This document shows, piece after piece, positions 37,451-52,905 of a stretch of DNA of 64,000 bases. The stretch is from Syntrophales bacterium (GTDB lineage Bacteria > Desulfobacterota > Syntrophia > Syntrophales > UBA2210): assembly GCA_963666365.2 (NCBI GenBank), contig CAXXNF010000001.1, positions 128,001-192,000 on the forward strand. The letters run 5' to 3'. The notes beneath the pieces were generated by a model, which made no database searches, was not told the DNA's origin, and saw only the letters and a list, made by a program, of their open reading frames with translations. Numbering within the stretch: position 1 is the first letter of the stretch; every line of letters starts with the position of its first letter. A program made the translations under genes and the position numbers.

Positions 37451-38128
37451 TTATTGAGCCTTCAGCTTCTGATCGCCGCCGCGCACTAATAGCTTCAATT
37501 GTGGCAAGAACATAAACATCAGATTTTCCTTCACCCATTTCTTGTATTCAGGGCTGCCAGGGGCCATCCCGAGAATGCCGGCATGATAGGCGCCGGCACC
37601 CAAATAATTTATGGCGAGTGTGTTGAAATTGTGGGCGAATCGCTCAATTTCCTGATCTGTTGCGCGTACTGAAGACGCTTTTTTAAAGACTGGTATGGTT
37701 CGGGCAACAAAATTCTGCAATAAAAAATAATTGGGAATGATTTGAGATTTGTTGGCCTGAACCAGGTTGAGGAGCACAATCCTCAAGGCCGCGGGATGTG
37801 TGTGCGTAAATGCAATCAGACGATCAATGTATAGAGACAATCCCTCCGTTGCATTCATGCCCCCGGTCTCATTGAGCCACTTCGTATTAGCCTGGTAGTA
37901 TTCATTCAATACATCCGAAAGAACCGCTTCGAAGAGCGCCGCCTTTGAAGAAAAATAGTACATGACAAGCTGGTAATTAAGACCGGCGGCATCCCCAACC
38001 ATTCGTATGCTCGCCGTGTGATAGGGATATTCAGAAAATATTTTTTTTGCGGCAGCGAGTATTTTTGCCGCGGTATCGGTTTTTCTTGTTACGGTTGGAA
38101 CCTGTGTGTGGGCGCTGTCTTTCTTCAA
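37451..38128 (-). CDS. TetR/AcrR-family transcriptional regulator
   Basis: N-terminal HTH ILAAAKKIFSE..ASIRMVG..YYFSSKAALF; divergent from the catabolic cluster. Confidence 0.9.
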   Translation of the reverse strand: MKKDSAHTQVPTVTRKTDTAAKILAAAKKIFSEYPYHTASIRMVGDAAGLNYQLVMYYFSSKAALFEAVLSDVLNEYYQANTKWLNETGGMNATEGLSLYIDRLIAFTHTHPAALRIVLLNLVQANKSQIIPNYFLLQNFVARTIPVFKKASSVRATDQEIERFAHNFNTLAINYLGAGAYHAGILGMAPGSPEYKKWVKENLMFMFLPQLKLLVRGGDQKLKAQ

Positions 38129-38183
38129 TGAGGGCCATCCTGTTTCACGTATTCTTGGTATGTATTGATTAAACGAAAAGAAA

Positions 38184-38265
38184 TGTCAACATGTATTTTA
38201 CAGTCGTAAAATACATGTTGACAGGAAACGAGTCATAGGATAGGGGATATTTTACGATCGTAAAA
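38184..38265. promoter_or_regulatory. Two putative TetR operators (TTTTAC-N4-GTAAAA) with divergent -35 hexamers
   Basis: Perfect 18-bp-arm palindrome 38184-38223 and a second core TTTTACGATCGTAAAA at 38250-38265. Confidence 0.8.
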
Positions 38266-38333
38266 AGGGCAGGAGTCATTCTATAGGTATTGGTATAATC
38301 GGATGAAAAACAATCTTATAAGGAGGCAGATAC

Positions 38334-39239
38334 ATGAAAGTGTTGAGAACACCCGACGAACGGTTTGAGAATCTTCCGGGCTATCCCTTCGCGCCACATT
38401 ATGCAGAGGTTCCCGACGGTGAAGACGGAACCCTGAGGATCCATTACGTGGATGAGGGACCACGGGACGCTGAGCCAGTGCTGCTGATGCACGGCGAACC
38501 CAGTTGGTCCTACCTGTACCGCACAATGATTCCCGTTATTACCAATGCCGGGCACAGGGCCATCGCGCCTGACCTGGTGGGTTTCGGTCGCTCTGATAAA
38601 CCGGCGGAGAGGGACAACTACACGTACCAGCGCCATGTGGACTGGATGCAGACCTGGCTGAACAAGACGGATCTGCAGGATATCACCCTCGTCTGCCAGG
38701 ACTGGGGCGGTCTGATCGGACTGCGCCTTGTGGCCGCAAATCTCGAACGGTTTGCCAGGGTGGTTGTCGCCAACACCGGTCTGCCCACGGGCGACCATTC
38801 CATTACCGACGCTTTTTTGAACTGGCGCACGTTTTCCATCGAAACACCGGATTTTGATGCCGGCGCTATCGTCGCCATGTCCACCCAAAATAAGATGACG
38901 GATGAGGTTATCGCCGCATACAACGCACCTTTTCCGGACGACAGCTATAAAGCTGGCGCCCGTATCTTTCCCTCCCTCGTGCCCATTGCACCGGACGATC
39001 CCGCATCCCAGGCCAACCGTCAGGCATGGGAAGTGTTTTCCACCTTTTCAAAACCATTCCTGACGTCCTTCAGTGACGGCGATCCCATCACGCGCGGTGG
39101 CGACCTCATTTTTCAACAAAAGATTCCCGGCGCACAGGGCCAACCCCATACAACGATCAGAGGGGCGGGACATTTTCTTCAGGAAGACAAGGGGGAGGAA
39201 TTTGCTGAGGTCGTTGTCAATTTCATAAAGAACGGATGA
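38334..39239 (+). CDS. Haloalkane dehalogenase (HLD-I, DhmA/DhlA-like)
   Basis: HGEPSWSYLYR, nucleophile QDWGG, FSDGDP, GAGHFLQED. Confidence 0.92.
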   Translation: MKVLRTPDERFENLPGYPFAPHYAEVPDGEDGTLRIHYVDEGPRDAEPVLLMHGEPSWSYLYRTMIPVITNAGHRAIAPDLVGFGRSDKPAERDNYTYQRHVDWMQTWLNKTDLQDITLVCQDWGGLIGLRLVAANLERFARVVVANTGLPTGDHSITDAFLNWRTFSIETPDFDAGAIVAMSTQNKMTDEVIAAYNAPFPDDSYKAGARIFPSLVPIAPDDPASQANRQAWEVFSTFSKPFLTSFSDGDPITRGGDLIFQQKIPGAQGQPHTTIRGAGHFLQEDKGEEFAEVVVNFIKNG

Positions 39240-39521
39240 TAGGAGATATGGCCGAGCTGGAAGATAAGATCAAAGCGTTCGCAAAAAAAGCGGGGTCTGA
39301 ACGGCAGAATTACACGCGCATCAGGAGGCAGTATGACTGACAAAAATTCGTTTCCCGCCGACAATGGGTTCAAGGACCCGGCAGGCATTTAACAAACGCA
39401 TGGCCGAAGTGGATCAGCACCCCGACGGTGAAGACCTGCAAAAGGCGCGGGATTTCGCCAAAGGCATCCTGGCCAAATAGCAAAGAGAAAATAGGCACAT
39501 CGATTCAAAGGAGGGAAAGAC

Positions 39522-40628
39522 ATGGGTGAGCAGACTTACATTCAGATCGCAGAGAACGTGGACAAGAATTTTCAGACCGCCCCAAAGGCCGGCGATGAAC
39601 TTTCGCAGGCTTTTATCGCCTATCTGAAAATAGTGTATACCCCGGAAGAAGCCAAGGTGGTTCGGCATATGTTTATGTTCCCGATGACAAAGACCTTGGA
39701 GGAGTTGGCGGAGGCAACGGGGAAAAGCCCTGAGAAGGTGCAAAACATCCTCGCTCCGTTGATCGCAAAAGGCTTCATCAACGCTTCCAGGGCCGGGGTC
39801 TGCATCCCGGCTATGCCGGACCTGGTGAACCTGCACATGTTTTACCCTGACATCAAACCGGAGGACCAGGAGGCAGCCAGACTCTACCAGCAGTTTTTCA
39901 TCAAGGAGAAATACTATAAATACTACGCCACTTCGGGAAAGGGCACCCCCGCGCTTCGGGCGATTCCCATCGACAAGACCATTCATCCCGAGGAAAAAAT
40001 CTTTACGGCTGAAGAAGCCCACCAGTTCATCCATAATCTTCCGACCGAGGATTTTCAACTGGTTCCCTGCCCCTGCCGCACACGTACGGAAAAACTGGGT
40101 ATCCGTGAATGCCGGGACAGGTTCCCCATCGGAAGTTGTATTTTTATCGGCGGCACGGCAAGGCATTTCAAGAAACTGGGGTTGGGCGGCCGGGTCACCC
40201 GAGAACAAGCCGTCAAGTACCTGGACGACATGGTGGAACTCGGCCTGGTTCCCACCACCCAGAATCACATGGCCGGAAACTTCGGCCTGATGTGCCTGTG
40301 CTGCGGCTGCTGCTGCTCCAACTTGCGGGGCCGCACGGTCTGGGACAACCCCACGGCGGTACTGCCTTCCTCCTTCATCCCCATCGCCGGAGAAGATTGC
40401 GTGCAGTGCGGAATCTGCGTCGACCGCTGCATGCTCGGGGCACTTCACCTGGACGAGGGAGAAGAAAAGGTGGTGGTGGATGCTGAAAAATGCATCGGCT
40501 GCGGCGTCTGCGCCGTCGCCTGCCCTACGGAAGCCTTGAAGCTCCATCGCATCGATCGGCCGGAAAAGCCCTTCGATACCGGTATGGAGTGGTATATGAC
40601 CGTGGCACAGGAAAACAACCGGCTGTAG
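39522..40628 (+). CDS. Poly-Cys 4Fe-4S protein, paralog 1
   Basis: N-terminal wHTH-like region (YTPEEA), CPCR, CLCCGCCC, two CxxCxxCxxxC motifs. Confidence 0.88.
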   Translation: MGEQTYIQIAENVDKNFQTAPKAGDELSQAFIAYLKIVYTPEEAKVVRHMFMFPMTKTLEELAEATGKSPEKVQNILAPLIAKGFINASRAGVCIPAMPDLVNLHMFYPDIKPEDQEAARLYQQFFIKEKYYKYYATSGKGTPALRAIPIDKTIHPEEKIFTAEEAHQFIHNLPTEDFQLVPCPCRTRTEKLGIRECRDRFPIGSCIFIGGTARHFKKLGLGGRVTREQAVKYLDDMVELGLVPTTQNHMAGNFGLMCLCCGCCCSNLRGRTVWDNPTAVLPSSFIPIAGEDCVQCGICVDRCMLGALHLDEGEEKVVVDAEKCIGCGVCAVACPTEALKLHRIDRPEKPFDTGMEWYMTVAQENNRL

Positions 40629-40713
40629 CCGTCTACAATTTAAGGAGGACTAAACATGATAGATCCTGTGTACAAAGATATAGTTGATGTCATGAGCGAA
40701 AGAGGAGTGGCTT

Positions 40714-40850
40714 GGGGGCGATCTCATTTTTCAAAATAAGATCCCCGGCGCGGAGGACCAACCCCGTACAATGATCAAAGGGGCGGGACATTTTCTTCAG
40801 GAAGACAAGGGGGAGGAATTTGCCACGTCATCGTAGACTTCATCGCCAAA
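40714..40850 (+). pseudogene. 3' remnant of a second haloalkane dehalogenase
   Basis: GGDLIFQNKIPGAEDQPRTMIKGAGHFLQEDKGEEFA aligns with the C-terminus of 38334..39239. Confidence 0.9.
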
Positions 40851-41143
40851 ACGCCGGTGCGGCGTCGTATGCCCGGTACGCGAAGAAGGTGGACAGGTTT
40901 CTGAAAGATGTCGGGGGCACGGTAACGTACATGGGAAAAATGAATGAGTTGTTGATCGGTCATGAAACCTGGGATGCCATCATCCTCGTGCAGTATCCAT
41001 CCAGAAAAGCGTACCTGAAAATGGTCAACGATCCTGACTATCTGAAAATACATAAGTATCGAGCAGCGGCCATCGATCGTTCCGTTCTCTATGCCATCGA
41101 TGAGATGGATGCGCAAGAGCTCTTCTTTGGGGCGAAGTCATAG
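40851..41143 (+). pseudogene. 5'-truncated DUF1330-family gene
   Basis: GAASYARY..WDAIILVQYPSRKAYLKM resembles 44224..44601; no start codon or RBS of its own. Confidence 0.75.
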
Positions 41144-41207
41144 GGCAAGACAGCCATCTTGTTCATGCCGCACGTGTACATCTGTTATAGTAAGAAAGGG
41201 GGAAACA

Positions 41208-42272
41208 ATGAAGGACGTATATCAACGATTGGCCGAATTTCTCGATACCCTTCCCCAGCGGTATCCTCTGAACACCGAATCGGGAATCGAATTAAAAATC
41301 CTTAAACACATTTTCACCCCGGAGGATGCGGAATGGTTCATGCGACTCAAACCGGCGCCGGAAACGGCGGAGAAAATTGCCGAACGTATCGGAAAGGACC
41401 CGGAGGAAACCGAAAAGACGCTCTATGACATGTCGAAAAACGGGCTGATCTTCCGCACGGGAAAACCGCGAAACTACCGATACATGGCAACGGCCTTCCT
41501 GGTGGGAATCACCGAGTTTCAGATGAACCGTATGACTCCCGCTCTGGTGAAAGACCTGGAAAAATTCGCGCCGGCTTTGTATGAAGCCACCTGGATGAAG
41601 GGAAAAACGCGAGATCTGCGAACCATCCCTGTCGCCGAAAGCGTATCACCCGATTCCGAAATTATGCCCTATGAAAGTGCCGAGGAGGTGATAAAGTCCG
41701 CCCGACACGTATCCATTTCCGACTGTATGTGCCGCCGAATGAGCGCACTTCTCGACAAACCCTGCGACCGGCCCATGGAGACCTGTTTTCATTTCGGTAG
41801 TGGGACCCACTATTTTGTGGAAAACGGACTCGGTCGCTACATCTCTCAGGAGGAAGCCCTGGCTATCCTGAAAAAAGGCGTTGAGGCAGGTCTGGTCTGT
41901 CAGCTGGGTTCTTCTCAGAATCCCGCTGCTATGTGTATGTGCTGCGATTGCTGCTGCGGAGTTCTAATAGAGTTAAAAAATCATCACGCAAAACCGTCGG
42001 AGCTGGTCAACAGTAACTTCTATGCCGTGGTGGATAAAGACAAATGCACAGGTTGCGAGATCTGTATCGATCGATGCCAGATGGAAGCCATTACCGTCGA
42101 TGATATTGCCCAGGTAAACCTGGACCGCTGTATCGGATGCGGGCTCTGTTCCGTGACGTGCCCCACGGAGGCTATCAAGGTTTACCGCAAGGATAAGGAA
42201 AGGGAATTTATTCCGGAAAGAAATCTGATGGAATCCACCATGGCCATTTACCGGCAGCGGCGGGAAAACTGA
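41208..42272 (+). CDS. Poly-Cys 4Fe-4S protein, paralog 2
   Basis: FTPEDA, CMCR, CMCCDCCC, two ferredoxin motifs; RBS before ATG 41208. Confidence 0.88.
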   Translation: MKDVYQRLAEFLDTLPQRYPLNTESGIELKILKHIFTPEDAEWFMRLKPAPETAEKIAERIGKDPEETEKTLYDMSKNGLIFRTGKPRNYRYMATAFLVGITEFQMNRMTPALVKDLEKFAPALYEATWMKGKTRDLRTIPVAESVSPDSEIMPYESAEEVIKSARHVSISDCMCRRMSALLDKPCDRPMETCFHFGSGTHYFVENGLGRYISQEEALAILKKGVEAGLVCQLGSSQNPAAMCMCCDCCCGVLIELKNHHAKPSELVNSNFYAVVDKDKCTGCEICIDRCQMEAITVDDIAQVNLDRCIGCGLCSVTCPTEAIKVYRKDKEREFIPERNLMESTMAIYRQRREN

Positions 42273-42370
42273 ACTTTAACAATCGCTTCCAGAACACAAC
42301 ATAAACCGAAACACATGTGGTAAAAATAAAGCTTATCACGCATATAAACCTACAAAAGGAGAAAGTATTC

Positions 42371-43045
42371 ATGGAATTGAAAGAAGCTATAAACAAGCGG
42401 ATCAGCGTCAGAGGCTACAAGACAGACCCTGTTTCTAAAGAGGTATTGGCAGAAGTTATCGAAACCTCTCTTCGTGCACCGTCCGCTATGAACGTTCAAC
42501 CCTGGGAAATCACCATTCTTGCCGGTCAACCACTCGATGAGTTGCGCGCCGCAAATATTGAAAAGCTGAGTACGGGCACGGTGCCCGTTTCGGATTTCGG
42601 ACATTCGAAACCTTATGAAGGGGTCCATAAGGAACGCCAGCGTGCCTTGGGATTCGAACTGTACCGCCTCCTCGGGATCGCGCGGGACGACAAGGGGAAA
42701 CGGATGGAATGGACTATGAAGGGTTTTCGGGGGTTTGATGCTCCGGCCATGATCATCCTGTCGGCCGACGAAAGCCTAGAGTCCCGGCTGGCCAGCTCGG
42801 ATATCGGCGGTCTCATCCAGACCATCTGCCTGGTTGCCCTTGAACACGGCCTGGGCACCTGCATTAACGGGCAGGGAATTATCTTCCCCGATGCGGTCAG
42901 GAAGATTACCGGTATTCCCGATTCGGCAAAAATCTATATATGCATCGCCATCGGCTATCCCGATTGGGAACATCCCGCAAACAAGCTGGTAAGCGATCGA
43001 GAGTCTGTTGAAACCGTCACACGATGGGTTGGTTTTAACCAGTAA
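42371..43045 (+). CDS. Nitroreductase-family flavoprotein
   Basis: RISVRGY, APSAMNVQPW, HGLGTC, IAIGYP; AAGGAG RBS. Confidence 0.93.
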   Translation: MELKEAINKRISVRGYKTDPVSKEVLAEVIETSLRAPSAMNVQPWEITILAGQPLDELRAANIEKLSTGTVPVSDFGHSKPYEGVHKERQRALGFELYRLLGIARDDKGKRMEWTMKGFRGFDAPAMIILSADESLESRLASSDIGGLIQTICLVALEHGLGTCINGQGIIFPDAVRKITGIPDSAKIYICIAIGYPDWEHPANKLVSDRESVETVTRWVGFNQ

Positions 43046-43244: not shown

Positions 43245-44210
43245 ATGGAGACAACCAACCGTATCATCGATACAAACGGTATCAAAATGCATATTACCGA
43301 GGCGGGTCAGGGACCGCTGGTTATCCTGTGTCACGGGTTCCCGGAGCTGGGATATTCCTGGAGGCATCAGCTCGTGGCACTCGCAGAAGCGGGATATCAC
43401 GGCGTCGCGCCCGACCAGCGGGGGTATGGTAAAACTGAGTGTCCCGAATCTATTGAATCCTACAAGATATTTGACCTGGTTGGCGACATTGTCGGCCTGG
43501 TGCACGCCCTCGGGGAAGACACGGCCGTCATTGCGGGGCATGACTGGGGTTCGCCGGTGGCCTGGAACTGCGCCCTGTTGAGGCCCGACATATTCCACGC
43601 CCTGATTCTTTTAAGCGTCCCCTATGCGCAACGAATCTGGACCGGTATCAAACCCACCGAAGGGATGCAAAAGATGGCGGGAGACAAAAACTTTTATATC
43701 CTCTACTTTCAGGAACCGGGAAAGGTCGAACAGGAGCTGGAAGCGGATGTCAGGAAATCTATCGTAAGCACATTTTATTCACTTTCGGGTGACGCGCCGC
43801 CGGAAGATCGATGGAAGTTTGCATTCGATAAAGAGCAACGCTTCATGGACACGGCATCGATACCTGCGGCGCTGCCGAACTGGCTCACCGAAAAGGACAT
43901 CGACATATTCACCGAGGCCTTTGAACGGACAGGTTTTCGGGGGGGCGTCAACTGGTACCGGAATATCGATAGAAACTGGGAGCTCTCACCCTTTCTCAGC
44001 GGGGCCATGATTCACCAACCCTCTCTGTTCATCGCCGGAGAGCTGGACGGTGTCATCGCCTTTTCCCGCGGGGCATTTGACCGTCTTGAACAATCCATGC
44101 CCAACCTGAAGGAGAAAGTGCTGATACCGGGGGCCGGGCACTGGATCCAGCAGGAGCGCCCCCAGGAGGTGAACGAACGGATGATACATTTTTTAAAAGA
44201 CATCACATAG
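43245..44210 (+). CDS. Alpha/beta-fold epoxide hydrolase (EphA/sEH-like)
   Basis: HGFPE, GHDWG, lid tyrosines in YILYFQ and NWYRN, GHWIQQE. Confidence 0.9.
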   Translation: METTNRIIDTNGIKMHITEAGQGPLVILCHGFPELGYSWRHQLVALAEAGYHGVAPDQRGYGKTECPESIESYKIFDLVGDIVGLVHALGEDTAVIAGHDWGSPVAWNCALLRPDIFHALILLSVPYAQRIWTGIKPTEGMQKMAGDKNFYILYFQEPGKVEQELEADVRKSIVSTFYSLSGDAPPEDRWKFAFDKEQRFMDTASIPAALPNWLTEKDIDIFTEAFERTGFRGGVNWYRNIDRNWELSPFLSGAMIHQPSLFIAGELDGVIAFSRGAFDRLEQSMPNLKEKVLIPGAGHWIQQERPQEVNERMIHFLKDIT

Positions 44211-44223
44211 AAAGGGGACGACA

Positions 44224-44601
44224 ATGCCTTTTATCATGCCAACTCAGGATCAATTCAAAAAGCTCATGTCCCAGGATTATAAAGGACCGATCGTCATGGT
44301 CAACCTGCTCAAATTCAAGCCCGACGGAGGAGCGGAATCATACCGGAAGTATCAGGAAAACGTTTTGAAGTTGGTGTCGACGAAAGCGATACGGATCACG
44401 CGCATCGTATATCGCGGCACCGGTCTGATGCCGGTCATCGGCGACGAAGAATGGGACGAGATAGCCCTGTATGAGTATCCTTCCATCGACGCCTTTATGG
44501 AAATGAACAGGAACAAGGCCTATCAGGATTCTGTTCACTACCGTACCGAGGCCCTCCTGGATTCGCGACTCTATTGCACTATTCCGGAAGCGGTCGAATA
44601 A
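44224..44601 (+). CDS. DUF1330-family protein, copy A
   Basis: GPIVMVNLLKFK, WDEIALYEYPS, RTEALLDSRL. Confidence 0.8.
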   Translation: MPFIMPTQDQFKKLMSQDYKGPIVMVNLLKFKPDGGAESYRKYQENVLKLVSTKAIRITRIVYRGTGLMPVIGDEEWDEIALYEYPSIDAFMEMNRNKAYQDSVHYRTEALLDSRLYCTIPEAVE

Positions 44602-44624
44602 ATACAAATTACAAGGGAGGAACC

Positions 44625-45686
44625 ATGAACAATTTGGAACTGTACACGAAGTTGGCCGAGCGCCATGACAAGGGGCAACTGGTCGGCGCCCCCATGACCA
44701 AGACGCTCCTGAAGATCTTCATGCACCTGTATACCCCGGAAGAGGCCGAGGTGGCCCTGACGCTTCCCTTCGAGAAGAACCTGTCTCTTAGCGAAGTCAA
44801 CGCCTTGTATCCGGACAAGATCGATCAAATCGAAGCAATACTGGACGGCATGGCAGTGAAAGGCACCGTCTATCGTGACATGAAGCCGGGGAGCGAGAAG
44901 CGGTACCGGCTGCTTCCCTCTCTGGTCGGGTGGCAGGAAACGCCCTTCTGGGGCGGGCAGGAAACCGAACGGACCAAGGCGCTGAGTCCGCTCTACAAGG
45001 AATATCATAAAGAGGCCTTTGCCGCCGAGATGGCCCGGGGCGTGCCGCTGATGCGGGTGATCCCCGTTGATACGTCACTCAAGGAAATTTCCACGATCCT
45101 CCCCTTCGATGTAATCAGGCCCATGGTCGATGCGTCTTCGTATCAGGCGGTAGGTCACTGCCCGTGCCGCGTTATGGCCAGATCCCGAGGCGAAGGCTGT
45201 GACTACTCAACGGAGAACTGCCTCCATTTCGGTAATATGGGGCGGTATATGGTGGCGCATGGCATGGCCAGGGAGATCACAAAAGAAGAAACCATGCAGA
45301 TCGTAAAAGCGGCGGACGACGAAGGGCTGGTCCATATCATCGATAACGTTGACGGGTTCATGCACACCATCTGCAACTGCTGCCCTTGCTGCTGTGCATT
45401 CCTGCGTCCCATCAACGGCAACTGGGGCCTGGACATGCTCTCCTATTCCAATTACCTGGCCGGGGTCGACGGCGATGAGTGTATCGGGTGCGGTGTCTGC
45501 GAGGATCGCTGCCCTATGAGCGCCATCGAGGTCGTCGACGAGGTGGCGCAGGTGAATGAAGCCGTCTGCATCGGCTGCGGGGTCTGTACGGCCACCTGCC
45601 CCACGGAGGCGATCCGTCTCAACCTGAGGAAGGAGGTCAAACCGCCGCCGCAGGTCCATGAATTCGCCGCGGCCAGGTTGAAATAA
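44625..45686 (+). CDS. Poly-Cys 4Fe-4S protein, paralog 3
   Basis: YTPEEA, CPCR, CNCCPCCC, two ferredoxin motifs; GGAGG RBS. Confidence 0.88.
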   Translation: MNNLELYTKLAERHDKGQLVGAPMTKTLLKIFMHLYTPEEAEVALTLPFEKNLSLSEVNALYPDKIDQIEAILDGMAVKGTVYRDMKPGSEKRYRLLPSLVGWQETPFWGGQETERTKALSPLYKEYHKEAFAAEMARGVPLMRVIPVDTSLKEISTILPFDVIRPMVDASSYQAVGHCPCRVMARSRGEGCDYSTENCLHFGNMGRYMVAHGMAREITKEETMQIVKAADDEGLVHIIDNVDGFMHTICNCCPCCCAFLRPINGNWGLDMLSYSNYLAGVDGDECIGCGVCEDRCPMSAIEVVDEVAQVNEAVCIGCGVCTATCPTEAIRLNLRKEVKPPPQVHEFAAARLK

Positions 45687-46138
45687 GCACCCATTGATTC
45701 TTCCGGCACGAGGACAGACCATGCTTTCCGGAAAAGAGCACCATATAATGGAAGGACACGAGTGGAGAACATCATTTAGCCTTAAGACCTGAATGTACAT
45801 TCTCCAATATGAATGGGTGATGGCAAAAAGCATGAATTCTAATGATTTCATGGAAGCGGTAGGGGCATTTATGGAGAAATGCGCTCCGAATTTCACCGAG
45901 ACCTGTTCACCTATCTTTTGTGAAAATGATCAAGAAGAGTCAAAACATGCCGGATGAACAGCGTGAGGCACAGATCAGGGTCGTGACCGGCCATCCCAAC
46001 ACCGAAGAGGAAACCAGGGCCAGGACCTGATATTCTCAATCGCCACCTGGCAGCAGGGACCGCTGGTGATCCTGGTTCACGGGTTTCCCGACCTGATGGT
46101 ACGGTTTTTAACGAATCTTAAATAAAGGAGGAATAACG

Positions 46139-46519
46139 ATGGCTTTTATCATGCCAACTCAGGATCAATTCAAACAGCTCATGTCCCAGGATTATAAAGG
46201 ACCGATCGTCATGGTCAACCTGCTCAAATTCAAGCCCGACGGAGGGGCGGAATCATACCGGAAGTATCAGGAAAACGTTTTGAAGTTGGTGTCGACGAAA
46301 GCGATAAAGCTAACCCGCATCGTGTATCGCGGCAACGGTCTGATGCCGGTCATCGGCGACGAGGAATGGGACGAGATAGCCCTGTATGAGTATCCGTCCA
46401 TCGACGCCTTTATGGAAATGAACAGGAGCAAGGCCTATCAGGATGCCCTTCACTACCGCACCGAGGCCCTCCTGGATTCGCGGCTCTACTGCACCATTCC
46501 CGAAGGGAGTAATACGTGA
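46139..46519 (+). CDS. DUF1330-family protein, copy B (near-identical to copy A)
   Basis: Only a few amino-acid differences from 44224..44601. Confidence 0.8.
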   Translation: MAFIMPTQDQFKQLMSQDYKGPIVMVNLLKFKPDGGAESYRKYQENVLKLVSTKAIKLTRIVYRGNGLMPVIGDEEWDEIALYEYPSIDAFMEMNRSKAYQDALHYRTEALLDSRLYCTIPEGSNT

Positions 46520-46530
46520 ATCCAACTTTT

Positions 46531-46662: not shown

Positions 46663-46719
46663 AACTTTTTGTTGATACCACATACCATTTGAAGAAAATA
46701 CCATTCGAGGAGGTTTAGT

Positions 46720-47535
46720 ATGTCAAACATGAAAGAATTTCAGGAGGCCGGGCAGACGCTGTATGACAAGATTCACCTGTCCAGTATGCCAATTGCCATC
46801 AAGTACATCAAAGATGTATCGGAGATAGAGGGTGAAAAAATCATGCGCCCCTCGGCCATAGGCGAGGAATGGTCTTTGTGCCAGGGTTTTACCTATGCCC
46901 GCCGCTGGGGTTGGAATGTGGCCATGACCGCTCAGGATAACTTCTGTGTCCCCGGCTCCGCCGGTCTCGGCTGGACGGATATATCCGAAGAGGACCGGTT
47001 TGAGAGTCAGATAAGACAGGGATGGCATAAGGACGCCGATGCGGAACGGCGGGTTTTTGATTTCACCCTGAGATTGTTCGGAGATCAGGTTGAAAAAAGA
47101 AAGGAATATAAAGGGTTCATACTGTCACCCCTACCCAGGACTATCATCGTTCCCGATACGGTTTTGATTTACGGCAATGCGGAACAGATAACCCACATCG
47201 TTCAGGCCCTGGTCTACGAAGGCCGTAATTTCCCGCAATCAGGATACTGGGGCTTTGGGGAATCCTGCATGAAGGGCGGGCTGGCCCCCTTCCTGACCCA
47301 GGTACCCCAGATTGTCATGCCCGGTACGGGAGACCGGACCTTTTCCGGTGTTTTCGACTACGAGATCGCCATCGGCCTGCCGGGGGCGATGATATGTGAC
47401 GCCGTCTCCAACCTGTTTAAAACGGGCGGCCGTTTAAATATGGGGATGCCGGTCAAGACCCTTCTGGCAAGGGGCATCAAGGCCAAGCTGACGCCGGGTT
47501 TTGATTTTTTACGGAAGAAATATGGGAAGGATTGA
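46720..47535 (+). CDS. DUF169 (COG2043)-family protein, paralog 1
   Basis: LCQGFTYARR, DNFCVP, YGNAEQ, GESC, PGTGDR. Confidence 0.8.
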   Translation: MSNMKEFQEAGQTLYDKIHLSSMPIAIKYIKDVSEIEGEKIMRPSAIGEEWSLCQGFTYARRWGWNVAMTAQDNFCVPGSAGLGWTDISEEDRFESQIRQGWHKDADAERRVFDFTLRLFGDQVEKRKEYKGFILSPLPRTIIVPDTVLIYGNAEQITHIVQALVYEGRNFPQSGYWGFGESCMKGGLAPFLTQVPQIVMPGTGDRTFSGVFDYEIAIGLPGAMICDAVSNLFKTGGRLNMGMPVKTLLARGIKAKLTPGFDFLRKKYGKD

Positions 47536-47662
47536 ACACGTTAAACCGATGGCCAGCCGGAGTAGTTATTCCGTGCAAATCCGGACTGTTACACGGAAAA
47601 GCGGAAGGGGGAACGCACGGACGCCCCTCGCTCATACGATATGACATAAGAAGGAGGAAGAC

Positions 47663-48502
47663 ATGGAATTGGAACAATATCGTGAAGTGGGAAATGATTT
47701 GTATCACCGGCTGCATCTGCCTACATACCCGGTGGCGGTCAAGTTCATACAGAGTGAGGATGAGATACCCCCGGAGGCCATCCGGCCCTCAGCAGGCGGT
47801 CAGAAATGGGCGCTCTGCCAGGCCTTCACCTATGCCCGGCGCCATGGCATGCATTCAGCCATGACGGATAAAGACAACTTTTGCGTTCCTTCGTCCGTTT
47901 CAATGGGGTGGGTCGAGGTGCCGATGAAGGGACTGTTCGAGAGTCAGATCCGGCAGGGATGGCATAAGGATCGAGCCGCCGAGAAGCGGAAATTCGATTT
48001 CATCGCGAATACCCTGTACGGCGGCCCGGAAGGTCAGGAGCGCTTATATAAGATGAGTCAGTATATGGGATTCATCTGCTCCCCACTGAACACAACCATC
48101 GTGATACCGGACAGTGTGCTTATCTACGGCGACAACGGACACATCTCCCATCTGATCCAGGCCCTGGTCTACGACTACACCGAACCGGTCACCTCATCAT
48201 TCGAGGGTTTTGGTGAATCCTGCATGAAAGGCGCCCTTCTCCCCTTCATTACCGGAAAGCCGCAGGTCGTCACCCCCGGCATGGGAGACATGGCATTTTC
48301 CGGAACAACGGTCAATGAACTGGCTGTCGGGATCCCCGGCCCGGCTGTGGGTCAGGTGAATGAATATTTGTTCAAGACCGGCGGTCGTCAGAACATGGGA
48401 TTCCCGTTGAAAAGCATGCTGGCCATGGGAGTAACGGAGTCCATAACCCCCGGGTTCAAGTATCTGAGAGAGATTGTGGAGAAGCAGCAGGATAAATCTT
48501 GA
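47663..48502 (+). CDS. DUF169-family protein, paralog 2
   Basis: LCQAFTYARR, DNFCVP, GESC, PGMGD. Confidence 0.8.
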   Translation: MELEQYREVGNDLYHRLHLPTYPVAVKFIQSEDEIPPEAIRPSAGGQKWALCQAFTYARRHGMHSAMTDKDNFCVPSSVSMGWVEVPMKGLFESQIRQGWHKDRAAEKRKFDFIANTLYGGPEGQERLYKMSQYMGFICSPLNTTIVIPDSVLIYGDNGHISHLIQALVYDYTEPVTSSFEGFGESCMKGALLPFITGKPQVVTPGMGDMAFSGTTVNELAVGIPGPAVGQVNEYLFKTGGRQNMGFPLKSMLAMGVTESITPGFKYLREIVEKQQDKS

Positions 48503-48553
48503 AGACAAACGGGCAGCTGTTCCTGTTTTACGCTGGTGCCCAAGGAGACAACC

Positions 48554-49366
48554 ATGAAATCTATTGAGAGTTATCAGGAGGCAGGCCGGGAGATTTGGAA
48601 CGACCTGAGGCTCGCGACCCATCCGGTGACGATAACATATATCAAAGATGAATCTGAAATTCCTGACGACTTTATCCGGCCATCCAAAACAGGAGAGAGC
48701 TGGGCTCTGTGCCAGGCCATCACCTTTGCCCGAAGCAACCGGTTACAAAGCGCCATGACGAAGGAGGATAATTTCTGTGTCCCCAGTTCGTATGGGCAGG
48801 GTTGGTTAAAACTGCCTTATAAGGAATTTGTCGAAAGTCAGATATTAAATCAATGGCGCAAGGACTACGAATCCGAGATGCGCTGTCACTTGGCATCCGG
48901 TGCTGATTATGCCTCCACGGCAAACCTGAAGAAGGCAATGGAACATGTTGGTTTTCTGGTGGCGCCACTTACCAGCACCCCTTTCATACCCGACTCAATC
49001 ATCTTTTACGGTAATCCCGGACAGGTTTCACATATTGTTCAGGCCTTGAGTTATGAGGGAAAACATGTGATCACATCCATCTTCAACGGATTTGGTGAAT
49101 CCTGTTGCAAAGGGGCATTAAAACCGTTTTTAACCGGAACACCTGAAGTTATCCTCCCCGGGGTCGGCGACAAATATGTCTCCGGGACCCAGGATGATGA
49201 AATGGCCGTGAGCATACCCGGCACCCTCTTGTCCGATCTCAAAGAAAACCTGTTTAAGACCGGGGGCGAAGCACTGGAGCAGGGCTATCCTTATAAGAAA
49301 ATCCGAAAGCCCCTTGATCACACCTGGTTGCCCGGGTGGGACTATCTGAAAAAGAAATTCTTTTAG
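48554..49366 (+). CDS. DUF169-family protein, paralog 3
   Basis: LCQAITFAR, DNFCVP, YGNPGQ, GESC, PGVGD. Confidence 0.8.
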   Translation: MKSIESYQEAGREIWNDLRLATHPVTITYIKDESEIPDDFIRPSKTGESWALCQAITFARSNRLQSAMTKEDNFCVPSSYGQGWLKLPYKEFVESQILNQWRKDYESEMRCHLASGADYASTANLKKAMEHVGFLVAPLTSTPFIPDSIIFYGNPGQVSHIVQALSYEGKHVITSIFNGFGESCCKGALKPFLTGTPEVILPGVGDKYVSGTQDDEMAVSIPGTLLSDLKENLFKTGGEALEQGYPYKKIRKPLDHTWLPGWDYLKKKFF

Positions 49367-49446
49367 GGATGGATACAGGGAATGTCAATGGGCTCTGGAG
49401 ATCAGAGCCAGTCGAAAAGGATCATATGTTTGAGGGAGGGATTTTC

Positions 49447-49692
49447 ATGAGAAATTATATTATCGGGCTGTTAACCGGTATCGCTGCAGGGCTCATGTGT
49501 GGTGCCACTCCCCCGCCTGCCTGGTACCTGTCGCTGTTCTTTGTGGCGGGAAGTGGTCTGGTGGCCTTCGGGCTCGATGTCTTTTTCGGATCACGTGAGG
49601 AACATCAATCACGGGCCGCATGGATGGGGTTGACTCTGTTCGGCGTGCCCGGTTTTGTTTTTCTCTCGATTGTGTGGAGATTCGGGTTTTAG
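49447..49692 (+). CDS. rdhB: RdhB-like 3-TM reductive dehalogenase membrane anchor (81 aa)
   Basis: Three hydrophobic segments with a WY...G..L..F...GS.EE...AAWM.L...G.P pattern recalling RdhB anchors; adjacent to rdhA. Confidence 0.7.
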   Translation: MRNYIIGLLTGIAAGLMCGATPPPAWYLSLFFVAGSGLVAFGLDVFFGSREEHQSRAAWMGLTLFGVPGFVFLSIVWRFGF

Positions 49693-49841
49693 GTTTTTCT
49701 TGCCCCTTTTTCCGGGCTGGCGCAGCGTGAAGTTGCCAGCCCCGCGCACATGCCCGTATGCGGGTATTCAAAGTTTGCACTGTAAGGTGACCTGAAAACC
49801 GGGAATGTAGATTCAACAGATCACAAGCAGGAGATATTCAA

Positions 49842-51185
49842 ATGGAAAAAATGACAAGCGATGTGAATAACGGATTCAACGATCCGGCAACCATACCCCA
49901 CGGGTATGTCTATCGAAGTCAAAAGGGGCGCTATCCCTGGTGGGTTAATTCTGTGGATAAAATCACAACGCCGGTGGATGTTTCGACATGGGAGCGCAAG
50001 ACCACCGACATGATTCTGATGACGCAAGTGATGCAGGGCCCCTTGCGTGAGGAAGGTCTTACCAGGCTCGAAAAGGGGCGTGCCCGGATGCTTGAAAAAA
50101 TGCGGAGCAATGCACCGGGCTCAAGAATCCAGGATTTTGCATTGCATTACGCATCGGAAACCTATTTTGCAGCAGGGACCGATATGTTTACATTGAGTCT
50201 TATCATGAAGTTTCTGAAGATTAATGAGATTGTCGGTACGCTGATTCATCCGCCGGATGAGCTCGGCGTTCCCCGCTGGGAGGGATCGGAGAAGGAAGCT
50301 TCAGCGATGGTCGAGGCCGCGGGGATTCACCTGGGGGCATCACAGGTGGGCTTTACGGGTCTCAACCCCTGGTGTCTTGAAGCAAACGTTCACATCAGCA
50401 GTTCCGTTGAAAAGATCAAGACCACCGAAGATGGTCAGGTATTGGTGCCGGAGGATATGAAATACGTAATCGTCCTGGCCGCCCAGGTCCCTATGGAAGC
50501 CCAGTACAGGGCCCCAAGTCAGATCGGTGATGCCGCTGACAGAAGCGGGTATGAAAACCGCCAAATGGCGATGGAGAGAATGATCAATTTTATCCGCGGC
50601 CTGGGCTACAAGGCCAAACCGATACCGGGAATGATACCTCCGGTCATCCCCCTCGCACTTATGGCGGGCCTGGGGGAAATGGGTCGCATGAACCGCCTGA
50701 TTTCACCGCTATATGGGGGCGCTATCCGTCTGGAAGCGCTCGTGACGGACCTGCCTTTGGCTCTGGATAAACCCATAGATTTTGGGTTACAGGAGTTTTG
50801 CAGAGGATGTAAAAAGTGCGCCAGGGCCTGCCCGGCTAATGCTCTCAGCATGGATGATGACCCTTCCTGGGAACCAAAAGGCGTGTATTCCACTCCTGGC
50901 AAGAAGGTCTGGTATGATGACGGTGAGCGCTGTTCAAGCTACAGCGCCAGTACGCATATCTACTGCGGGGCCTGTCTGGGGGCCTGCCCATGGAATAAAG
51001 ACAACAAGACGGCTCTTCACTCGGTGTCCAGGGCAATGGGGGCAACAATGCCGTCTCTGTCCCCGTTTATGGTTTTCATGGATGATCTGTTCGGGTACGG
51101 TCTCGTCCCGGAACAGAGGATGAACGAATGGTGGGACCTGAAACTTCCGAACAAGGGATTCGACAGTAGCAGAACCCGGTCGTGA
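49842..51185 (+). CDS. rdhA: Corrinoid-dependent reductive dehalogenase-family protein lacking a TAT signal
   Basis: PWWV..VD, FIRGLGY, AGLGEMGR, VTDLPL..DKPIDFG, FCRGCKKCARACP, C-x10-CGACLGACPW. Confidence 0.9.
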   Translation: MEKMTSDVNNGFNDPATIPHGYVYRSQKGRYPWWVNSVDKITTPVDVSTWERKTTDMILMTQVMQGPLREEGLTRLEKGRARMLEKMRSNAPGSRIQDFALHYASETYFAAGTDMFTLSLIMKFLKINEIVGTLIHPPDELGVPRWEGSEKEASAMVEAAGIHLGASQVGFTGLNPWCLEANVHISSSVEKIKTTEDGQVLVPEDMKYVIVLAAQVPMEAQYRAPSQIGDAADRSGYENRQMAMERMINFIRGLGYKAKPIPGMIPPVIPLALMAGLGEMGRMNRLISPLYGGAIRLEALVTDLPLALDKPIDFGLQEFCRGCKKCARACPANALSMDDDPSWEPKGVYSTPGKKVWYDDGERCSSYSASTHIYCGACLGACPWNKDNKTALHSVSRAMGATMPSLSPFMVFMDDLFGYGLVPEQRMNEWWDLKLPNKGFDSSRTRS

Positions 51186-51354
51186 TTTCGCTCAGGCCAT
51201 CATCTTTAACTCTACAAAAATTTGATAGTGGCGTTGAACTAAGAATTGAACCAAAAGAGGATCAAAATAGGGAAACGTCAGTGCATTAGCCGTCTCAGGA
51301 AGAGGTGTTTATAAGAAATTACCGATAAAAAAATACGAAATAGGAGGGACTTTT

Positions 51355-52905
51355 ATGAACCTTTCGACGCTTCTCGATCAGAACTGTGAACAATTTGGAG
51401 AGTATGTAGCCACGATTTGGCTCCCCGAGCCGGATAAGGAAGTGCAAATCACCAACCTCGATGCATTCAGGGAAGTAAAACGCCTCGGAAACGCCCTGAG
51501 AAATCTCGACGTGAAACGGGGAGATAAAATCGCCGTTTTTCTTCCCAATTCTCCCGAAGTCATAGCTACGTACCGGGCCGCCTGGAGAATCGGCGCGGCC
51601 GTTGTTCCCATCCTCTTTCTTTTGAGTGAGCAGGAAGTGCGATATATTTTGGAGAACTCTGAATCCGTCGCCGTCGTCACTCATTCCGATTTGTATGATA
51701 CGGTCGCCGGGGCGGCACGGGGCCTTGATCACGTCAAAAACATTATTTTGATCGATAAAGAACGAGAAGGGGCGCGTTTCTACGGAGATCTCATCGCTGA
51801 AAGCAGTGAAACGCTCGAAGCCGTTGAAACCGCCGATGACGAGATAGCGGTAATTCTCTACACGGCCGGGACCACGGGCAGACCGAAAGGGGTGATGCTG
51901 TCCCACCTGAATCTCTACAGTAATGCACAGAGCAGCTTCGAGCACAGCTTTCCTCCGGAGAAACAGGAGGAGGCACGAGCGTTCACCGGCCTTTTTGTGC
52001 TGCCGCTCTGTCATTCTTACGGTCTGATGGTTTCCAATGTCGGTGCCCTGAGCGGTGCAACGAACATTATGGTTCCCCGCTTTGATCCCGAAATGATCTT
52101 CCGCGCTATTGAAAAATATAAGATCAAAATCATGGCGGCCGTTCCGGCAATGTTTTCCTATTTCCTGATTGCCCCGGAGGCCGAAAAGTATGATACCGGT
52201 TCTATGGAAATGTGGTCTTCCGCTTCGGCGCCTCTTTCAACCGACGTCATCGAAAATTTTGAAAACAAATTCAGCGGTATCATCTATGAAGGTTACGGTC
52301 TTTCGGAGGCCTCTCCGACCGTTGCATCCCACAAGCTTGGGATGCCGACGAAACCGGGATCGGTCGGCATTCCCATCCCGGGGGTAGAAGTCAAAATATT
52401 CGATGAAAACGATCGGGAACAGAAGGCACATGAAATGGGGGAATTGGTCGTGCGGGGCGATAATGTCATGAAGGGATATTATAAGATGCCCGACAAAACC
52501 GCCGATGCAATCAAAAACGGGTGGCTGCATACGGGTGACATCGCCTATATTGATGATGACGGATATATCTTCATAATGGAACGAAAGGATGACATGATCA
52601 TACGAGGCGGCGAGAATATCTATCCGCGGGAGCTTGAGGAGGTGATCTGGTCTCATCCGGAGGTAGCGGAAGTTGCCGTTGTCAGTATCCCCGATCCGGT
52701 GAGGGGAGAGGAAGTGGTCGCCGTGGTTGTGCCTCACCAGGGAGCAACATTGACGGAAGCGGATGTCAAGGAATTCTGCACCGGTAAAATAGCCAAATTT
52801 AAACTCCCCAAGATGGTTGTATTTATGGACGTCCTGCCGAGAAGCTCGATCGGAAAAATACTAAAAAGGGAATTGAAAGAGAAGATGCGAGAACTGGTGA
52901 AGTAG
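51355..52905 (+). CDS. Long-chain acyl-CoA synthetase (FadD-like)
   Basis: YTAGTTGRPKG, GYGLSE, WLHTGD, GGENIYP, GKILK. Confidence 0.93.
   Translation: MNLSTLLDQNCEQFGEYVATIWLPEPDKEVQITNLDAFREVKRLGNALRNLDVKRGDKIAVFLPNSPEVIATYRAAWRIGAAVVPILFLLSEQEVRYILENSESVAVVTHSDLYDTVAGAARGLDHVKNIILIDKEREGARFYGDLIAESSETLEAVETADDEIAVILYTAGTTGRPKGVMLSHLNLYSNAQSSFEHSFPPEKQEEARAFTGLFVLPLCHSYGLMVSNVGALSGATNIMVPRFDPEMIFRAIEKYKIKIMAAVPAMFSYFLIAPEAEKYDTGSMEMWSSASAPLSTDVIENFENKFSGIIYEGYGLSEASPTVASHKLGMPTKPGSVGIPIPGVEVKIFDENDREQKAHEMGELVVRGDNVMKGYYKMPDKTADAIKNGWLHTGDIAYIDDDGYIFIMERKDDMIIRGGENIYPRELEEVIWSHPEVAEVAVVSIPDPVRGEEVVAVVVPHQGATLTEADVKEFCTGKIAKFKLPKMVVFMDVLPRSSIGKILKRELKEKMRELVK

Follow-up and report, generated by a model that had tools for sequence, protein, structure and literature searches.

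Does a single locus in the genome of an anaerobe bring hydrolytic and reductive dehalogenation together as one functional unit, or do the genes for the two only stand side by side? The locus that raises this question spans positions 37451-52905 of the window (the whole 64,000-nt stretch of a Syntrophales bacterium contig that was analysed) and comprises a divergent TetR gene and a 14.6-kb co-directional run; genes and remnants given below are on the forward strand unless stated otherwise. ORF calls together with Pfam and NCBIfam profiles recovered every gene named in a preliminary description of this DNA where it had been placed, with the family identities claimed for it. That description had spoken of one co-directional run; the common direction and the divergence from the TetR gene hold, but the run is a mosaic with gene remnants and has a shorter variant in a close strain. 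We consider it somewhat better than even, at roughly 55%, that the locus is an accessory, horizontally assembled island, in an anaerobe host, pooling enzymes for the intracellular dehalogenation of aliphatics and for the follow-up steps. The host derives from marine sediment, and neither dsrA nor a haem-copper oxidase (COX1) was found in its genome, features that together fit an anaerobe; cobS, bearing on corrinoid supply, was found. The accessory nature of the island is suggested by its reductive dehalogenase (RdhA), not found in 40 relatives (best match 30% identity over 175 aa) and the only one above cut-off in the 4.0-Mb host genome, as well as by an adjoining tRNA-Glu(UUC) gene (36612..36687, ARAGORN) about 760 nt upstream. 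This tRNA gene is a possible integration landmark; in a same-genus genome (G001), a helicase gene is followed by tRNA-Glu, where the contig stops.

For the hydrolases, the nitroreductase and the ligase, profile and PDB matches agree with the motifs and with what had been proposed. The HLD-I haloalkane dehalogenase (HLD; 301 aa, 38334..39239; NF002043 500 bits, cut-off 265; PDB 6f9o 7e-134, about 67% identity by hand count from the alignment) carries the motifs QDWGG, GHF and SDGDP, and aligns end to end with HLD-I enzymes (DhlA 1b6g; 6f9o, 4mj3, 5esr), keeping their Asp-Trp, His and Asp motifs; unlike them, it resides in an anaerobe host and is linked to rdhA. The HLD-I enzymes characterised so far are generally known from aerobes, where the pathway also includes alcohol or aldehyde dehydrogenases along with a haloacid dehalogenase; the island encodes none of these partner enzymes. 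The alpha/beta-fold epoxide hydrolase (EH) of sEH/EphA type (321 aa, 43245..44210; PDB 5cw2 EphA 3.5e-94) displays HGFP, HDWG, GHW and NWYR motifs. A nitroreductase-family flavoprotein (42371..43045, with the ORF opening at 42317; PF00881 90 bits) has orthologues of 71-77% identity in rdhA loci L044 and L010, with the L010 copy adjoining the RdhB-like/rdhA genes, and an AMP-dependent acyl-CoA ligase (516 aa, 51355..52905; PF00501 294 bits; NF004837 479 bits, cut-off 476) closes the run. We postulate that the cofactor-free HLD would hydrolyse C-X bonds to alcohols, that EH would open epoxides, such as those from halohydrins, that the flavoprotein would belong to the same enzyme pool, and that the ligase would pass acid products to beta-oxidation. 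The substrates may be natural halogenated aliphatics, sulfated in relatives.

Besides these enzymes, the run had been credited with three families of three copies each, and all nine genes are present, but one DUF1330 copy is truncated and another falls below the Pfam cut-off. DUF1330a (40820..41143; PF07045 40.6 bits) misses about 25 N-terminal residues in the alignment, DUF1330b (44224..44601) scores 19.7 bits against a Pfam cut-off of 23 while matching PDB 3hhl at 2e-14, and DUF1330c (46139..46519) scores 26.1 bits, with a 300-nt repeat of 90% identity marking DUF1330b and DUF1330c as recent duplicates. DUF1330 genes lie directly 3' of alpha/beta-hydrolase genes at several sites. The DUF169 copies (DUF169a, 46720..47535, PF02596 136 bits; DUF169b, 47663..48502, 126 bits; DUF169c, 48536..49366, 130 bits) are 43-49% identical to one another and share three near-invariant Cys residues; a structure model of DUF169a (pLDDT 95) matched no clear known fold. 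We surmise that DUF169 and DUF1330 may act as accessory enzymes. Two remnants interrupt the run, one comprising the HLD 3' end (40714..40819, aa 255-289; 83% aa and 90% nt identity to 39096-39201) and the other an internally deleted EH (46054..46138), in which aa 22-35 (46054-46095) are fused to duplicated 3'-end sequence of EH. The shorter variant in the close strain is without the second and third Fe-S paralogues and the nitroreductase, its middle section being 84-92% identical vs. 98.6-99.5% in the flanks. These remnants and the strain variant show that duplication and recombination have shaped the island; given also the truncated DUF1330, not every gene in it is needed.

The same features can be read differently, with the locus as a plasticity zone, i.e. 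a recombination hot spot that collects unrelated xenobiotic and catabolic genes without a shared pathway; rdhBA, HLD/EH and the Fe-S/DUF genes would then function independently of one another. Remnants, truncated DUF1330, near-identical duplicated segments and the divergent middle of the strain variant are all in keeping with this, as are IS elements 16-30 kb upstream and the finding that the best relatives of the separate modules sit in different MAGs. Furthermore, relatives without RdhA commonly carry DUF169, DUF1330 and Fe-S family genes, which also group with beta-oxidation genes elsewhere in the host genome and are found together without RdhA in locus L092, indicating that they are not RdhA-specific. 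Against this reading, the same families accompany the RdhA clade in independent genomes and in operon-tight arrangements (L015, L011, L100); the search for conserved co-occurrence of RdhA, HLD, DUF169 and DUF1330 in other genomes, which the preliminary description had proposed as a check, gave a positive result. We compared 25 loci (median 5.6 kb) with RdhA of at least 40% identity, after removal of duplicates and the self-like L032, with 31 loci (median 9.5 kb) with RdhA below 40%; an accessory family lay beside RdhA in 11/25 of the former (9 of the 13 loci of at least 5 kb) vs. 1/31 of the latter. Among the 25 clade loci, the Fe-S family was present in 7, DUF169 and DUF1330 in 3 each, and HLD and nitroreductase in 2 each. 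In two other MAGs, rdhA and HLD genes form tight operons, one (L015) with the order HLD (465 bits)-abhydrolase-DUF1330-RdhA (68%) and short gaps, the other (L011) with RdhA-HLD (398 bits)-RdhB-like, and in a third MAG one 20-kb contig (L100) holds Fe-S, RdhA (51%), Fe-S (74%), EH (75%) and DUF1330 (76%) genes, continuing with HLD (73%), sulfatase, DUF169 and ECH. HLD scored above cut-off in 7/8 MAGs with the RdhA clade vs. 0/7 with other clades, a small comparison confounded by taxonomy, and also in 5/40 relatives where RdhA was not found. The 11/25 vs. 1/31 enrichment, the two operons and the L100 contig show that the co-occurrence is not due to chance; HLD/EH, RdhA and three little-studied families recur together in unrelated sediment bacteria, and we regard an unrelated collection as unlikely.

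The RdhA catalytic subunit (447 aa, 49842..51185; TIGR02486 224 bits, cut-off 160; PceA 4uqu 2.6e-42) harbors two Fe-S motifs, C320xxCxxCxxxCP and C364...C375xxCxxxCP, with Tyr237 and Arg296 aligning with Tyr246 and Arg305 of PceA, and its sequence shows neither an RR/Tat motif nor a hydrophobic N-terminus. Of the pair announced as rdhB-rdhA, the second gene is secure at the TIGR02486 level, but the first encodes an 81-aa protein with three hydrophobic helices (49447..49692) and a conserved FDVxxGSxxEHxxRAA loop, for which no sequence match to solved PceB or any NCBIfam model was obtained; such an RdhB-like gene lies beside RdhA of at least 40% identity in 12/25 loci. In common with pceAB/cprBA-type operons (PceA 4uqu; PceA2B2 8q4h), the island has the RdhA fold family, two Fe-S motifs and a small three-helix membrane protein encoded beside rdhA; it differs in the lack of a Tat signal, in a membrane partner without detectable similarity to known RdhB, in the absence of RdhC, RdhK and RdhT matches among its genes (Pfam, NCBIfam), and in a context that is catabolic rather than respiratory. 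With the catabolic cytoplasmic RdhAs (NpRdhA 4ras/6zy1, BhbA) it shares the lack of an export signal and a setting among catabolic genes; in contrast to these, no NAD(P)H reductase domain is fused to it, a membrane partner is encoded with it, and it matches PceA more closely than NpRdhA (7.5e-31). The latter feature, along with the conserved small membrane partner and an anaerobe host without dsrA or COX1, would suit organohalide respiration, with rdhB-rdhA as an energy-conserving, membrane-bound terminal reductase and the hydrolases detoxifying side products only. However, the Tat motif is found in 0/27 aligned members of the clade, the genome holds a single rdhA, the RdhC/RdhK/RdhT families are unmatched among the island genes, and related loci have neighbour genes of a catabolic kind (sulfatases, ECH, ACAD, thiolase, ligases), making respiration quite improbable. 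In the favored reading of an intracellular pool, this corrinoid/Fe-S enzyme would be cytoplasmic, probably kept at the cytoplasmic membrane face by the RdhB-like protein. A "simplified cytosolic" RdhA type from Desulfobacterota and Chloroflexota is described in one report (PMC12219181).

The poly-Cys Fe-S family had been put forward as electron donors, a role that now seems doubtful. Its three paralogues (FeS1, 39522..40628, with a winged helix, a poly-Cys domain and 2x[4Fe-4S]; FeS2, 41208..42272, the start inferred from homologues in an ORF opening at 41091; FeS3, 44625..45686, in an ORF opening at 44574, with a 74% orthologue in L013/L100) are 353-368 aa long, only 24-32% identical pairwise, and have about 16 conserved Cys residues, leaving room for 3-4 clusters; FeS1 orthologues directly adjoin RdhA in L039, L038 and L031. 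In the published account (PMC10134865), the isr operon of Acetobacterium wieringae encodes IsrA, two HypA, HypB and a 350-aa 4Fe-4S ferredoxin related to the N-terminal module of IsrA, with CxC at Cys180/182 and Cys254/256, this Cys-cluster module being the proposed substrate-side module of IsrA, a putative isoprene reductase. The island paralogues share that length and two CxC pairs at the IsrA Cys6-site positions (invariant C179/C181 and C250/C252 in FeS3), as matched via the published residue positions; the island differs in that it encodes neither a fused reductase of the IsrA type nor HypA/HypB, its partner genes being dehalogenases and hydrolases. In relatives, IsrA-like fusions of 836-908 aa join the Fe-S module to FAD/NAD(P)H oxidoreductase domains, and the N-terminus of a 908-aa example aligns with FeS3 (28% identity over 293 aa, E 2e-26) before continuing into Fer4_20, Pyr_redox_2 and Fer4. 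Judged by this homology, the island family appears to be the free-standing form of an IsrA-like N-terminal Cys-cluster module; this relationship, the copy number of up to 26-29 per genome in relatives without RdhA, and the frequent adjacency to non-redox enzymes argue against a donor role. For these proteins we favor a role as small-molecule reductases, or as the final relay to such an enzyme, over one as plain ferredoxins. That they are instead redox- or ligand-sensing regulators, one per neighbouring enzyme gene and with no part in the chemistry, is very unlikely, since the likeness of residues 23-126 to ArsR/MarR-type winged helices (VIA Z 6-6.7) lies in a range (Z 6-7) common for the tool, and although single copies beside diverse enzyme genes, non-redox included, and many paralogues recall one-component regulators, the fusion to oxidoreductase domains and the substrate side proposed in the IsrA account (PMC10134865) speak against such a role, and so many conserved Cys would be unusual in a regulator.

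Control of the island probably lies with the TetR-family regulator (37451..38128, reverse strand; TetR_N PF00440 46.2 bits), for which the twin operators reported earlier are borne out by two palindromes in the intergenic region. Candidate operator 1 (38184..38223) is a perfect 18-nt inverted repeat (38184-38201/38206-38223) with a 4-nt spacer, overlapping promoter-like hexamers on both strands, and candidate operator 2 (38248..38266) has the same ATTTTAC-N4-GTAAAA core. A TetR repressor on these palindromes would gate the first island promoter, and the island genes may be co-regulated. RdhA may, however, fall outside the TetR unit: DUF169a is preceded by a promoter-like site (46672-46699) and, ahead of that, a terminator-like hairpin (46569-46589), features as frequent in this region as in shuffled sequence, and between DUF1330c and DUF169a there is no further copy of the operator motif. 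Across the window, the core ATTTTAC-N4-GTAAAAT has 3 matches vs. 0.28 expected, one at 38195 (0 mismatches), one at 38249 (1 mismatch) and one, with 2 mismatches, within the ligase gene; 0/100 shuffles reached this count.

The rdhA gene of the Syntrophales host lies in a co-directional run of plus-strand genes (38334-52905), divergent from a minus-strand TetR gene (37451-38128), and no large minus-strand gene with a family match occurs inside it, in agreement with the preliminary description. The gene families named there were recovered with Pfam and NCBIfam profiles, and its twin operators are likewise present: the spacer between TetR and the haloalkane dehalogenase (HLD) gene holds two palindromic elements with a common core, one of them a perfect 18-nt inverted repeat, and this core has 3 matches in the window vs. 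0.28 expected, 2 of the 3 within this spacer. A promoter and terminator scan of the region returned site counts equal to those of shuffled sequence. The HLD belongs to the HLD-I subfamily (NF002043, 500.1 bits vs. cut-off 265) and aligns end to end with a solved HLD-I enzyme (6f9o, 7.3e-134 over residues 1-299), and it also matches DhlA (1b6g, 8e-57); its D123-W124 in QDWGG, H280 in GHF, D248/D250 in SDGDP and W164 include, by analogy with DhlA, the putative Asp-His-Asp triad and two halide-binding Trp. The best solved relatives of the alpha/beta hydrolase are epoxide hydrolases (EphA 5cw2, 3.5e-94; 6unw, 5.7e-93), and HGFP30, D100 in HDWG, H299 in GHW, Y151/Y154 and Y238 presumably provide, as in sEH, the HGXP oxyanion motif, the nucleophilic Asp, the His and the two cap Tyr; we refer to this hydrolase as EH. 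The nitroreductase was considered as an iodotyrosine deiodinase (IYD)-type dehalogenase and rejected, matching IYD at 1.5e-5 vs. 4e-30 for generic nitroreductases. For the acyl-CoA ligase, the family was confirmed by Pfam and NCBIfam; used as a tblastn query, it detects ~55 AMP-dependent acyl-CoA ligase paralogues in the host genome.

RdhA, the reductive dehalogenase catalytic subunit, scores above the cut-offs of both TIGR02486 (224.1 vs. 160.35 bits) and PF13486 (62.6 vs. 24.3 bits), matches PceA (4uqu) at 2.6e-42 and carries two Fe-S motifs, both C-terminal (C320RGCKKCARACP and C364...C375GACLGACP), the eight Cys of which are invariant across 27 aligned members of its clade. Within a gapless alignment block, Y237 and R296 fall on PceA Y246 and R305, the active-site Tyr and Arg, and are their presumed counterparts; R296 is invariant among the 27 sequences, and the Y237 position is Tyr in most rows, Gly in one and Phe in two. 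A Tat signal is absent from RdhA, as evidenced by: 1) no RR in its first 80 residues; 2) a maximum 19-residue hydropathy of 1.44, with no hydrophobic N-terminus. The Tat motif is also absent from all 27 clade members, and these share a conserved RYPWWV N-terminal motif. The preliminary description had read the neighboring genes as an rdhB-rdhA pair, of which RdhA stands by profile and the small membrane protein gene is indeed present (49447-49692, plus strand; 81 aa that include three hydrophobic helices and the conserved loop FDVxxGSxxEHxxRAA); the 81-aa sequence gave no match to PDB chains including solved PceB (phmmer) or to NCBIfam models (hmmscan), and "RdhB-like" is as far as the sequence of the 81-aa protein can be taken. 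Among the 17 island ORFs, no Pfam or NCBIfam match to RdhC, RdhK or RdhT was found, and the HTH_Crp_2 match of FeS1, the first of three poly-Cys Fe-S paralogues, is sub-threshold (18.3 bits vs. cut-off 27).

RdhA has at least 555 relatives at E<=1e-20, the closest being metagenomic and 68-77% identical. A scan of genome contigs with the single RdhA sequence found no locus, and one based on the alignment of 27 relatives found 24 genome loci and 57 metagenome loci, all of which were compared with the island proteins (tblastn, E<=1e-6, coverage of at least 50%). After leaving out loci with an RdhA match shorter than half of the query, the self-like locus L032 from a close strain and all but the longest locus in eight duplicate groups, we grouped the loci on RdhA identity alone, giving 25 distinct loci at 40% or above (median length 5.6 kb) vs. 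31 below 40% (median 9.5 kb). The conserved co-occurrence that the preliminary description had set as a check is evident here, with accessory families following the RdhA clade: any such family occurs in 11/25 loci (9/13 of those of at least 5 kb) vs. 1/31, the single exception (L031) having an RdhA of 39% identity. By family, the counts were 7/25 vs. 1/31 (L031) for the Fe-S family, 3/25 vs. 0/31 for DUF169 and also for DUF1330, and 2/25 vs. 0/31 for HLD and also for nitroreductase, and the RdhB-like gene, conserved beside rdhA, was found in 12/25 vs. 1/31 (again L031). In five distinct loci an Fe-S gene lies within 400 nt of rdhA. One Tat-less RdhA clade now has a defined recurrent gene set, in which a small, conserved membrane partner is joined by three uncharacterised candidate-partner families. 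Tat-less marine RdhAs are already known, the available text of PMC12660952 reporting that 95.2% of marine reductive dehalogenases are without both Tat signal and RdhB, and RdhA types are classified in the part of PMC12219181 available to us.

The main rival to a functional set sees in the run a recombination hot spot gathering independent functions, and three of the related loci weigh against it. In L015 (RdhA 68%), HLD (465 bits), an alpha/beta hydrolase, DUF1330 and RdhA follow one another with gaps of ~15-95 nt; in L011 (RdhA 51%), the order is RdhA-HLD (398 bits)-RdhB-like; and L100, a longer view of the L013 contig from a Thermodesulfobacteriota MAG, encodes Fe-S, RdhA (51%), Fe-S (74% to FeS3), DJ-1, a metallo-beta-lactamase-fold protein and EH (75%), then DUF1330 (76%), a ThiS-like ORF, HLD (73%), a sulfatase, DUF169 and an enoyl-CoA hydratase. 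Operon-tight repeats of this kind argue for more than chance gathering. On the other hand, the island itself is a mosaic, and its gene remnants fit the rival well: an HLD 3'-end remnant (40714-40819) adjoins DUF1330a, which has lost ~25 N-terminal residues at the junction, an EH 5'-region remnant (46054-46095) runs directly into a duplicated EH 3' end, and DUF1330b and DUF1330c lie within a 300-nt repeat that is 90% identical. A shorter strain variant points the same way, in that L032, a close-strain metagenome contig with flanks 99.5% and 98.6% identical to the island, is without FeS2, the nitroreductase, FeS3 and the EH-remnant/DUF1330c unit, and its EH/DUF1330 allele is only 84-92% identical to that of the island. 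The short-variant junction (41111 joined to 43200) also occurs in contigs of an independent marine-sediment run, and the version of the island found in the window is covered, with 0-1 differences, by contigs from the probable source sample. The rival further draws on the occurrence of accessory families apart from RdhA.

At the level of whole genomes, an HLD over the cut-off was found in 7/8 MAGs with the host-type RdhA clade vs. 0/7 MAGs with other RdhA clades, a comparison of small size, with MAG completeness unknown, and confounded by taxonomy. Five of 40 relatives of the host (same genus, family or order) also have an HLD over the cut-off, and RdhA, sought in all 40, was found in none, the best match being 30% over 175 residues. 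In one genus among the relatives (G022:C23, G004:C176 and G019:C1; L098, L099), a ~490-bit HLD gene lies ~1 kb from an ORF of 236-301 aa whose sole match is to the Fe-S region of RdhA/QueG-like proteins. Genes for hydrolytic (HLD-I) and for reductive (RdhA) dehalogenation are linked in anaerobes, even in one operon (rdhA-HLD-rdhB-like, L011); the available text of PMC12090745 mentions "hydrolases" among the neighbors of reductive dehalogenases, and our search of titles and abstracts, with subscription journals outside its coverage, found no report of a haloalkane dehalogenase linked to rdhA or rdhB. Sulfatases recur in the neighborhoods of the RdhA clade (L034, L039, L040, L013, L044, L100), as do TetR regulators, flavodoxins, GST-like proteins and beta-oxidation enzymes. 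In L013/L100 and L044, the sulfatases are accompanied by a trio made up of a ~345-aa protein without a family, DJ-1/PfpI and a 504-aa metallo-beta-lactamase-fold protein.

FeS1-3 (353-368 aa) each comprise an N-terminal region without a family match and a C-terminal 2x[4Fe-4S] domain, and belong to a family of at least 3011 members at E<=1e-30 labeled only "4Fe-4S binding protein" or with similar generic ferredoxin-type names. In FeS3 numbering, the invariant Cys are C179/C181, C192, C199 and C250/C252/C253/C257 in addition to eight ferredoxin Cys. A model of FeS3 (pLDDT 78) predicts an N-terminal winged helix, a central domain and a ferredoxin domain (Z 8.8); the winged helix resembles ArsR/MarR proteins at Z 6-6.7, a level common for VIA-align, and the central domain, which carries the eight invariant non-ferredoxin Cys, has no fold match by Foldseek or VIA-align. 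According to the available text of PMC10134865, IsrA, the putative isoprene reductase of the Acetobacterium wieringae isr operon, is a 901-aa NfnB-like protein whose first ~270 residues align with the 350-aa ferredoxin of that operon, and six of its Cys, with CxC at 180/182 and 254/256 among them, make up a putative fifth cluster by the substrate tunnel. The CxC positions of our Fe-S proteins (C179/C181 and C250/C252), followed by 2x[4Fe-4S], are as the IsrA positions in that portion of PMC10134865. In L101, from a relative of the same order, the N-terminal part of a 908-aa protein is homologous to FeS3 (28% over 293 aa, E 2e-26) and precedes the Fer4_20, Pyr_redox_2 and Fer4 domains of an NfnB-like FAD/NAD(P)H oxidoreductase; an 836-aa protein in L102 has the same three domains and an N-terminus matching FeS3 at 35% identity. 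By its domain order, the L101 protein is of IsrA-type architecture. The part of PMC10134865 available to us finds no link to the nickel chaperone HypA/HypB for the stand-alone ferredoxin; Pfam and NCBIfam detected no HypA or HypB gene among the island ORFs, and a single CobW/HypB/UreG-type GTPase is flanked by Fe-S genes in L096.

The Fe-S family was found in 32/41 genomes (the relatives and the host), two of which have as many as 26 and 29 matches, and free-standing Fe-S genes in RdhA-less relatives alternate with genes for FAD oxidoreductases, CoA-transferase, SDR, thiolase-like, hydratase and metallo-beta-lactamase proteins. Given the IsrA-type fusions and the Fe-S genes beside varied enzymes in the absence of RdhA, the family is not specific to RdhA and probably has a role beyond electron transfer. 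These findings connect dehalogenase loci to an IsrA-type Cys-cluster module found in thousands of proteins.

The three DUF169 proteins are well above the PF02596 cut-off of 27 (136, 126 and 130 bits for a, b and c) and have three near-invariant Cys. A model of DUF169a (pLDDT 95) gave no Foldseek match (best E 0.45); VIA-align returned a best Z of 5.5 and then many thiolase/ketosynthase-fold chains at Z 4-4.7, values too weak for fold assignment, and an ESM Atlas feature search returned only the uncharacterised GGGtGRT family (0.90-0.91), a match of low recognition value. DUF169 is present in 35/41 genomes (the relatives and the host). With PF07045 (cut-off 23), DUF1330a and DUF1330c score 40.6 and 26.1 bits, and DUF1330b, at 19.7 bits, is below the cut-off and matches the structural-genomics protein RPA0582 (PDB 3hhl) at 2e-14. 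DUF1330 lies directly 3' of an alpha/beta hydrolase gene or remnant at 3/3 island sites, an order also seen in L015, L024 and a second locus of the host genome; it is reversed in L014, with the hydrolase after DUF1330, and in L092, a second host cluster, the two are ~2 kb apart. L092 (G000:C1:417000-430000) is without RdhA and holds genes for thiolase, acyl-CoA dehydrogenase, a 440-aa member of the Fe-S family, alpha/beta hydrolase, DUF1330, DUF169 and MgtC/DUF4010. Literature searches on DUF169 and DUF1330 returned nothing informative, and no paper joining "reductive dehalogenase" with DUF169 was found.

The analysis establishes which genes are present and that they recur together, and from this we infer the topology, the substrates, a joint regulation and what the three uncharacterised families do. 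Most likely, the island is an acquired set of cytoplasmic enzymes that is gated by TetR and acts on halogenated aliphatics, in which HLD would remove halide hydrolytically, EH would open epoxides, the predicted corrinoid enzyme RdhA, probably anchored on the cytoplasmic side of the membrane by the 81-aa protein, would remove halide reductively, and the ligase would activate acid products; the IsrA-module Fe-S proteins, DUF169 and DUF1330 could be further catalysts or electron relays. It is a long shot that the recurring set (Tat-less RdhA, RdhB-like anchor, HLD-I, EH, IsrA-module Fe-S proteins, DUF169 and DUF1330, joined in relatives by sulfatases) constitutes an undescribed anaerobic pathway mineralising natural polyhalogenated, often sulfated, marine aliphatics, e.g. 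chlorosulfolipid-like lipids and halogenated alkyl sulfates, with the IsrA-type Cys-cluster proteins and/or DUF169 as new reductases. Such reductases would supply electrons to the cytoplasm-facing RdhA, or reduce alkenes or epoxides remaining after dehalogenation, and if this were true they would be the first candidates to provide electrons to RdhAs of the Tat-less type, which prevails in marine data sets.

The host genome (4.0 Mb in 2 contigs, 94% complete) encodes a single RdhA over the cut-off; neither dsrA nor COX1 was found in it, and cobS, which bears on corrinoid supply, is present. The island starts ~760 nt past a tRNA-Glu gene, and the same-genus relative G001 keeps the helicase-tRNA-Glu synteny on a contig that stops just past tRNA-Glu. 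Between tRNA-Lys and the helicase (29694-34297) lie genes for an M20 peptidase, a dihydroxy-acid dehydratase and an MFS transporter that are missing from the syntenic stretch of G001 (L089), and thus represent a second insertion in the neighborhood of the island. Mobile-element genes are found 16-30 kb upstream of the island (6994-8998, 14646-15152 and 19324-21352), comprising IS66 TnpB and transposase, a Mutator-family transposase fragment, an rve integrase fragment and a DDE_Tnp_1 transposase. The minus strand at 308-19188 encodes four large hybrid histidine kinases (308-2095; 3368-6271, with a MEDS/DcmR-type sensory domain; 9042-11450; and 16495-19188, with a CHASE domain), together with a CheB-CheR-PAS fusion (11462-14398, minus strand). 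Toward the other end of the window, 58619-63714 encodes a Sortilin/BNR-repeat protein of 1509 aa that also has TSP3 repeats; a small ORF with a dockerin domain comes next.
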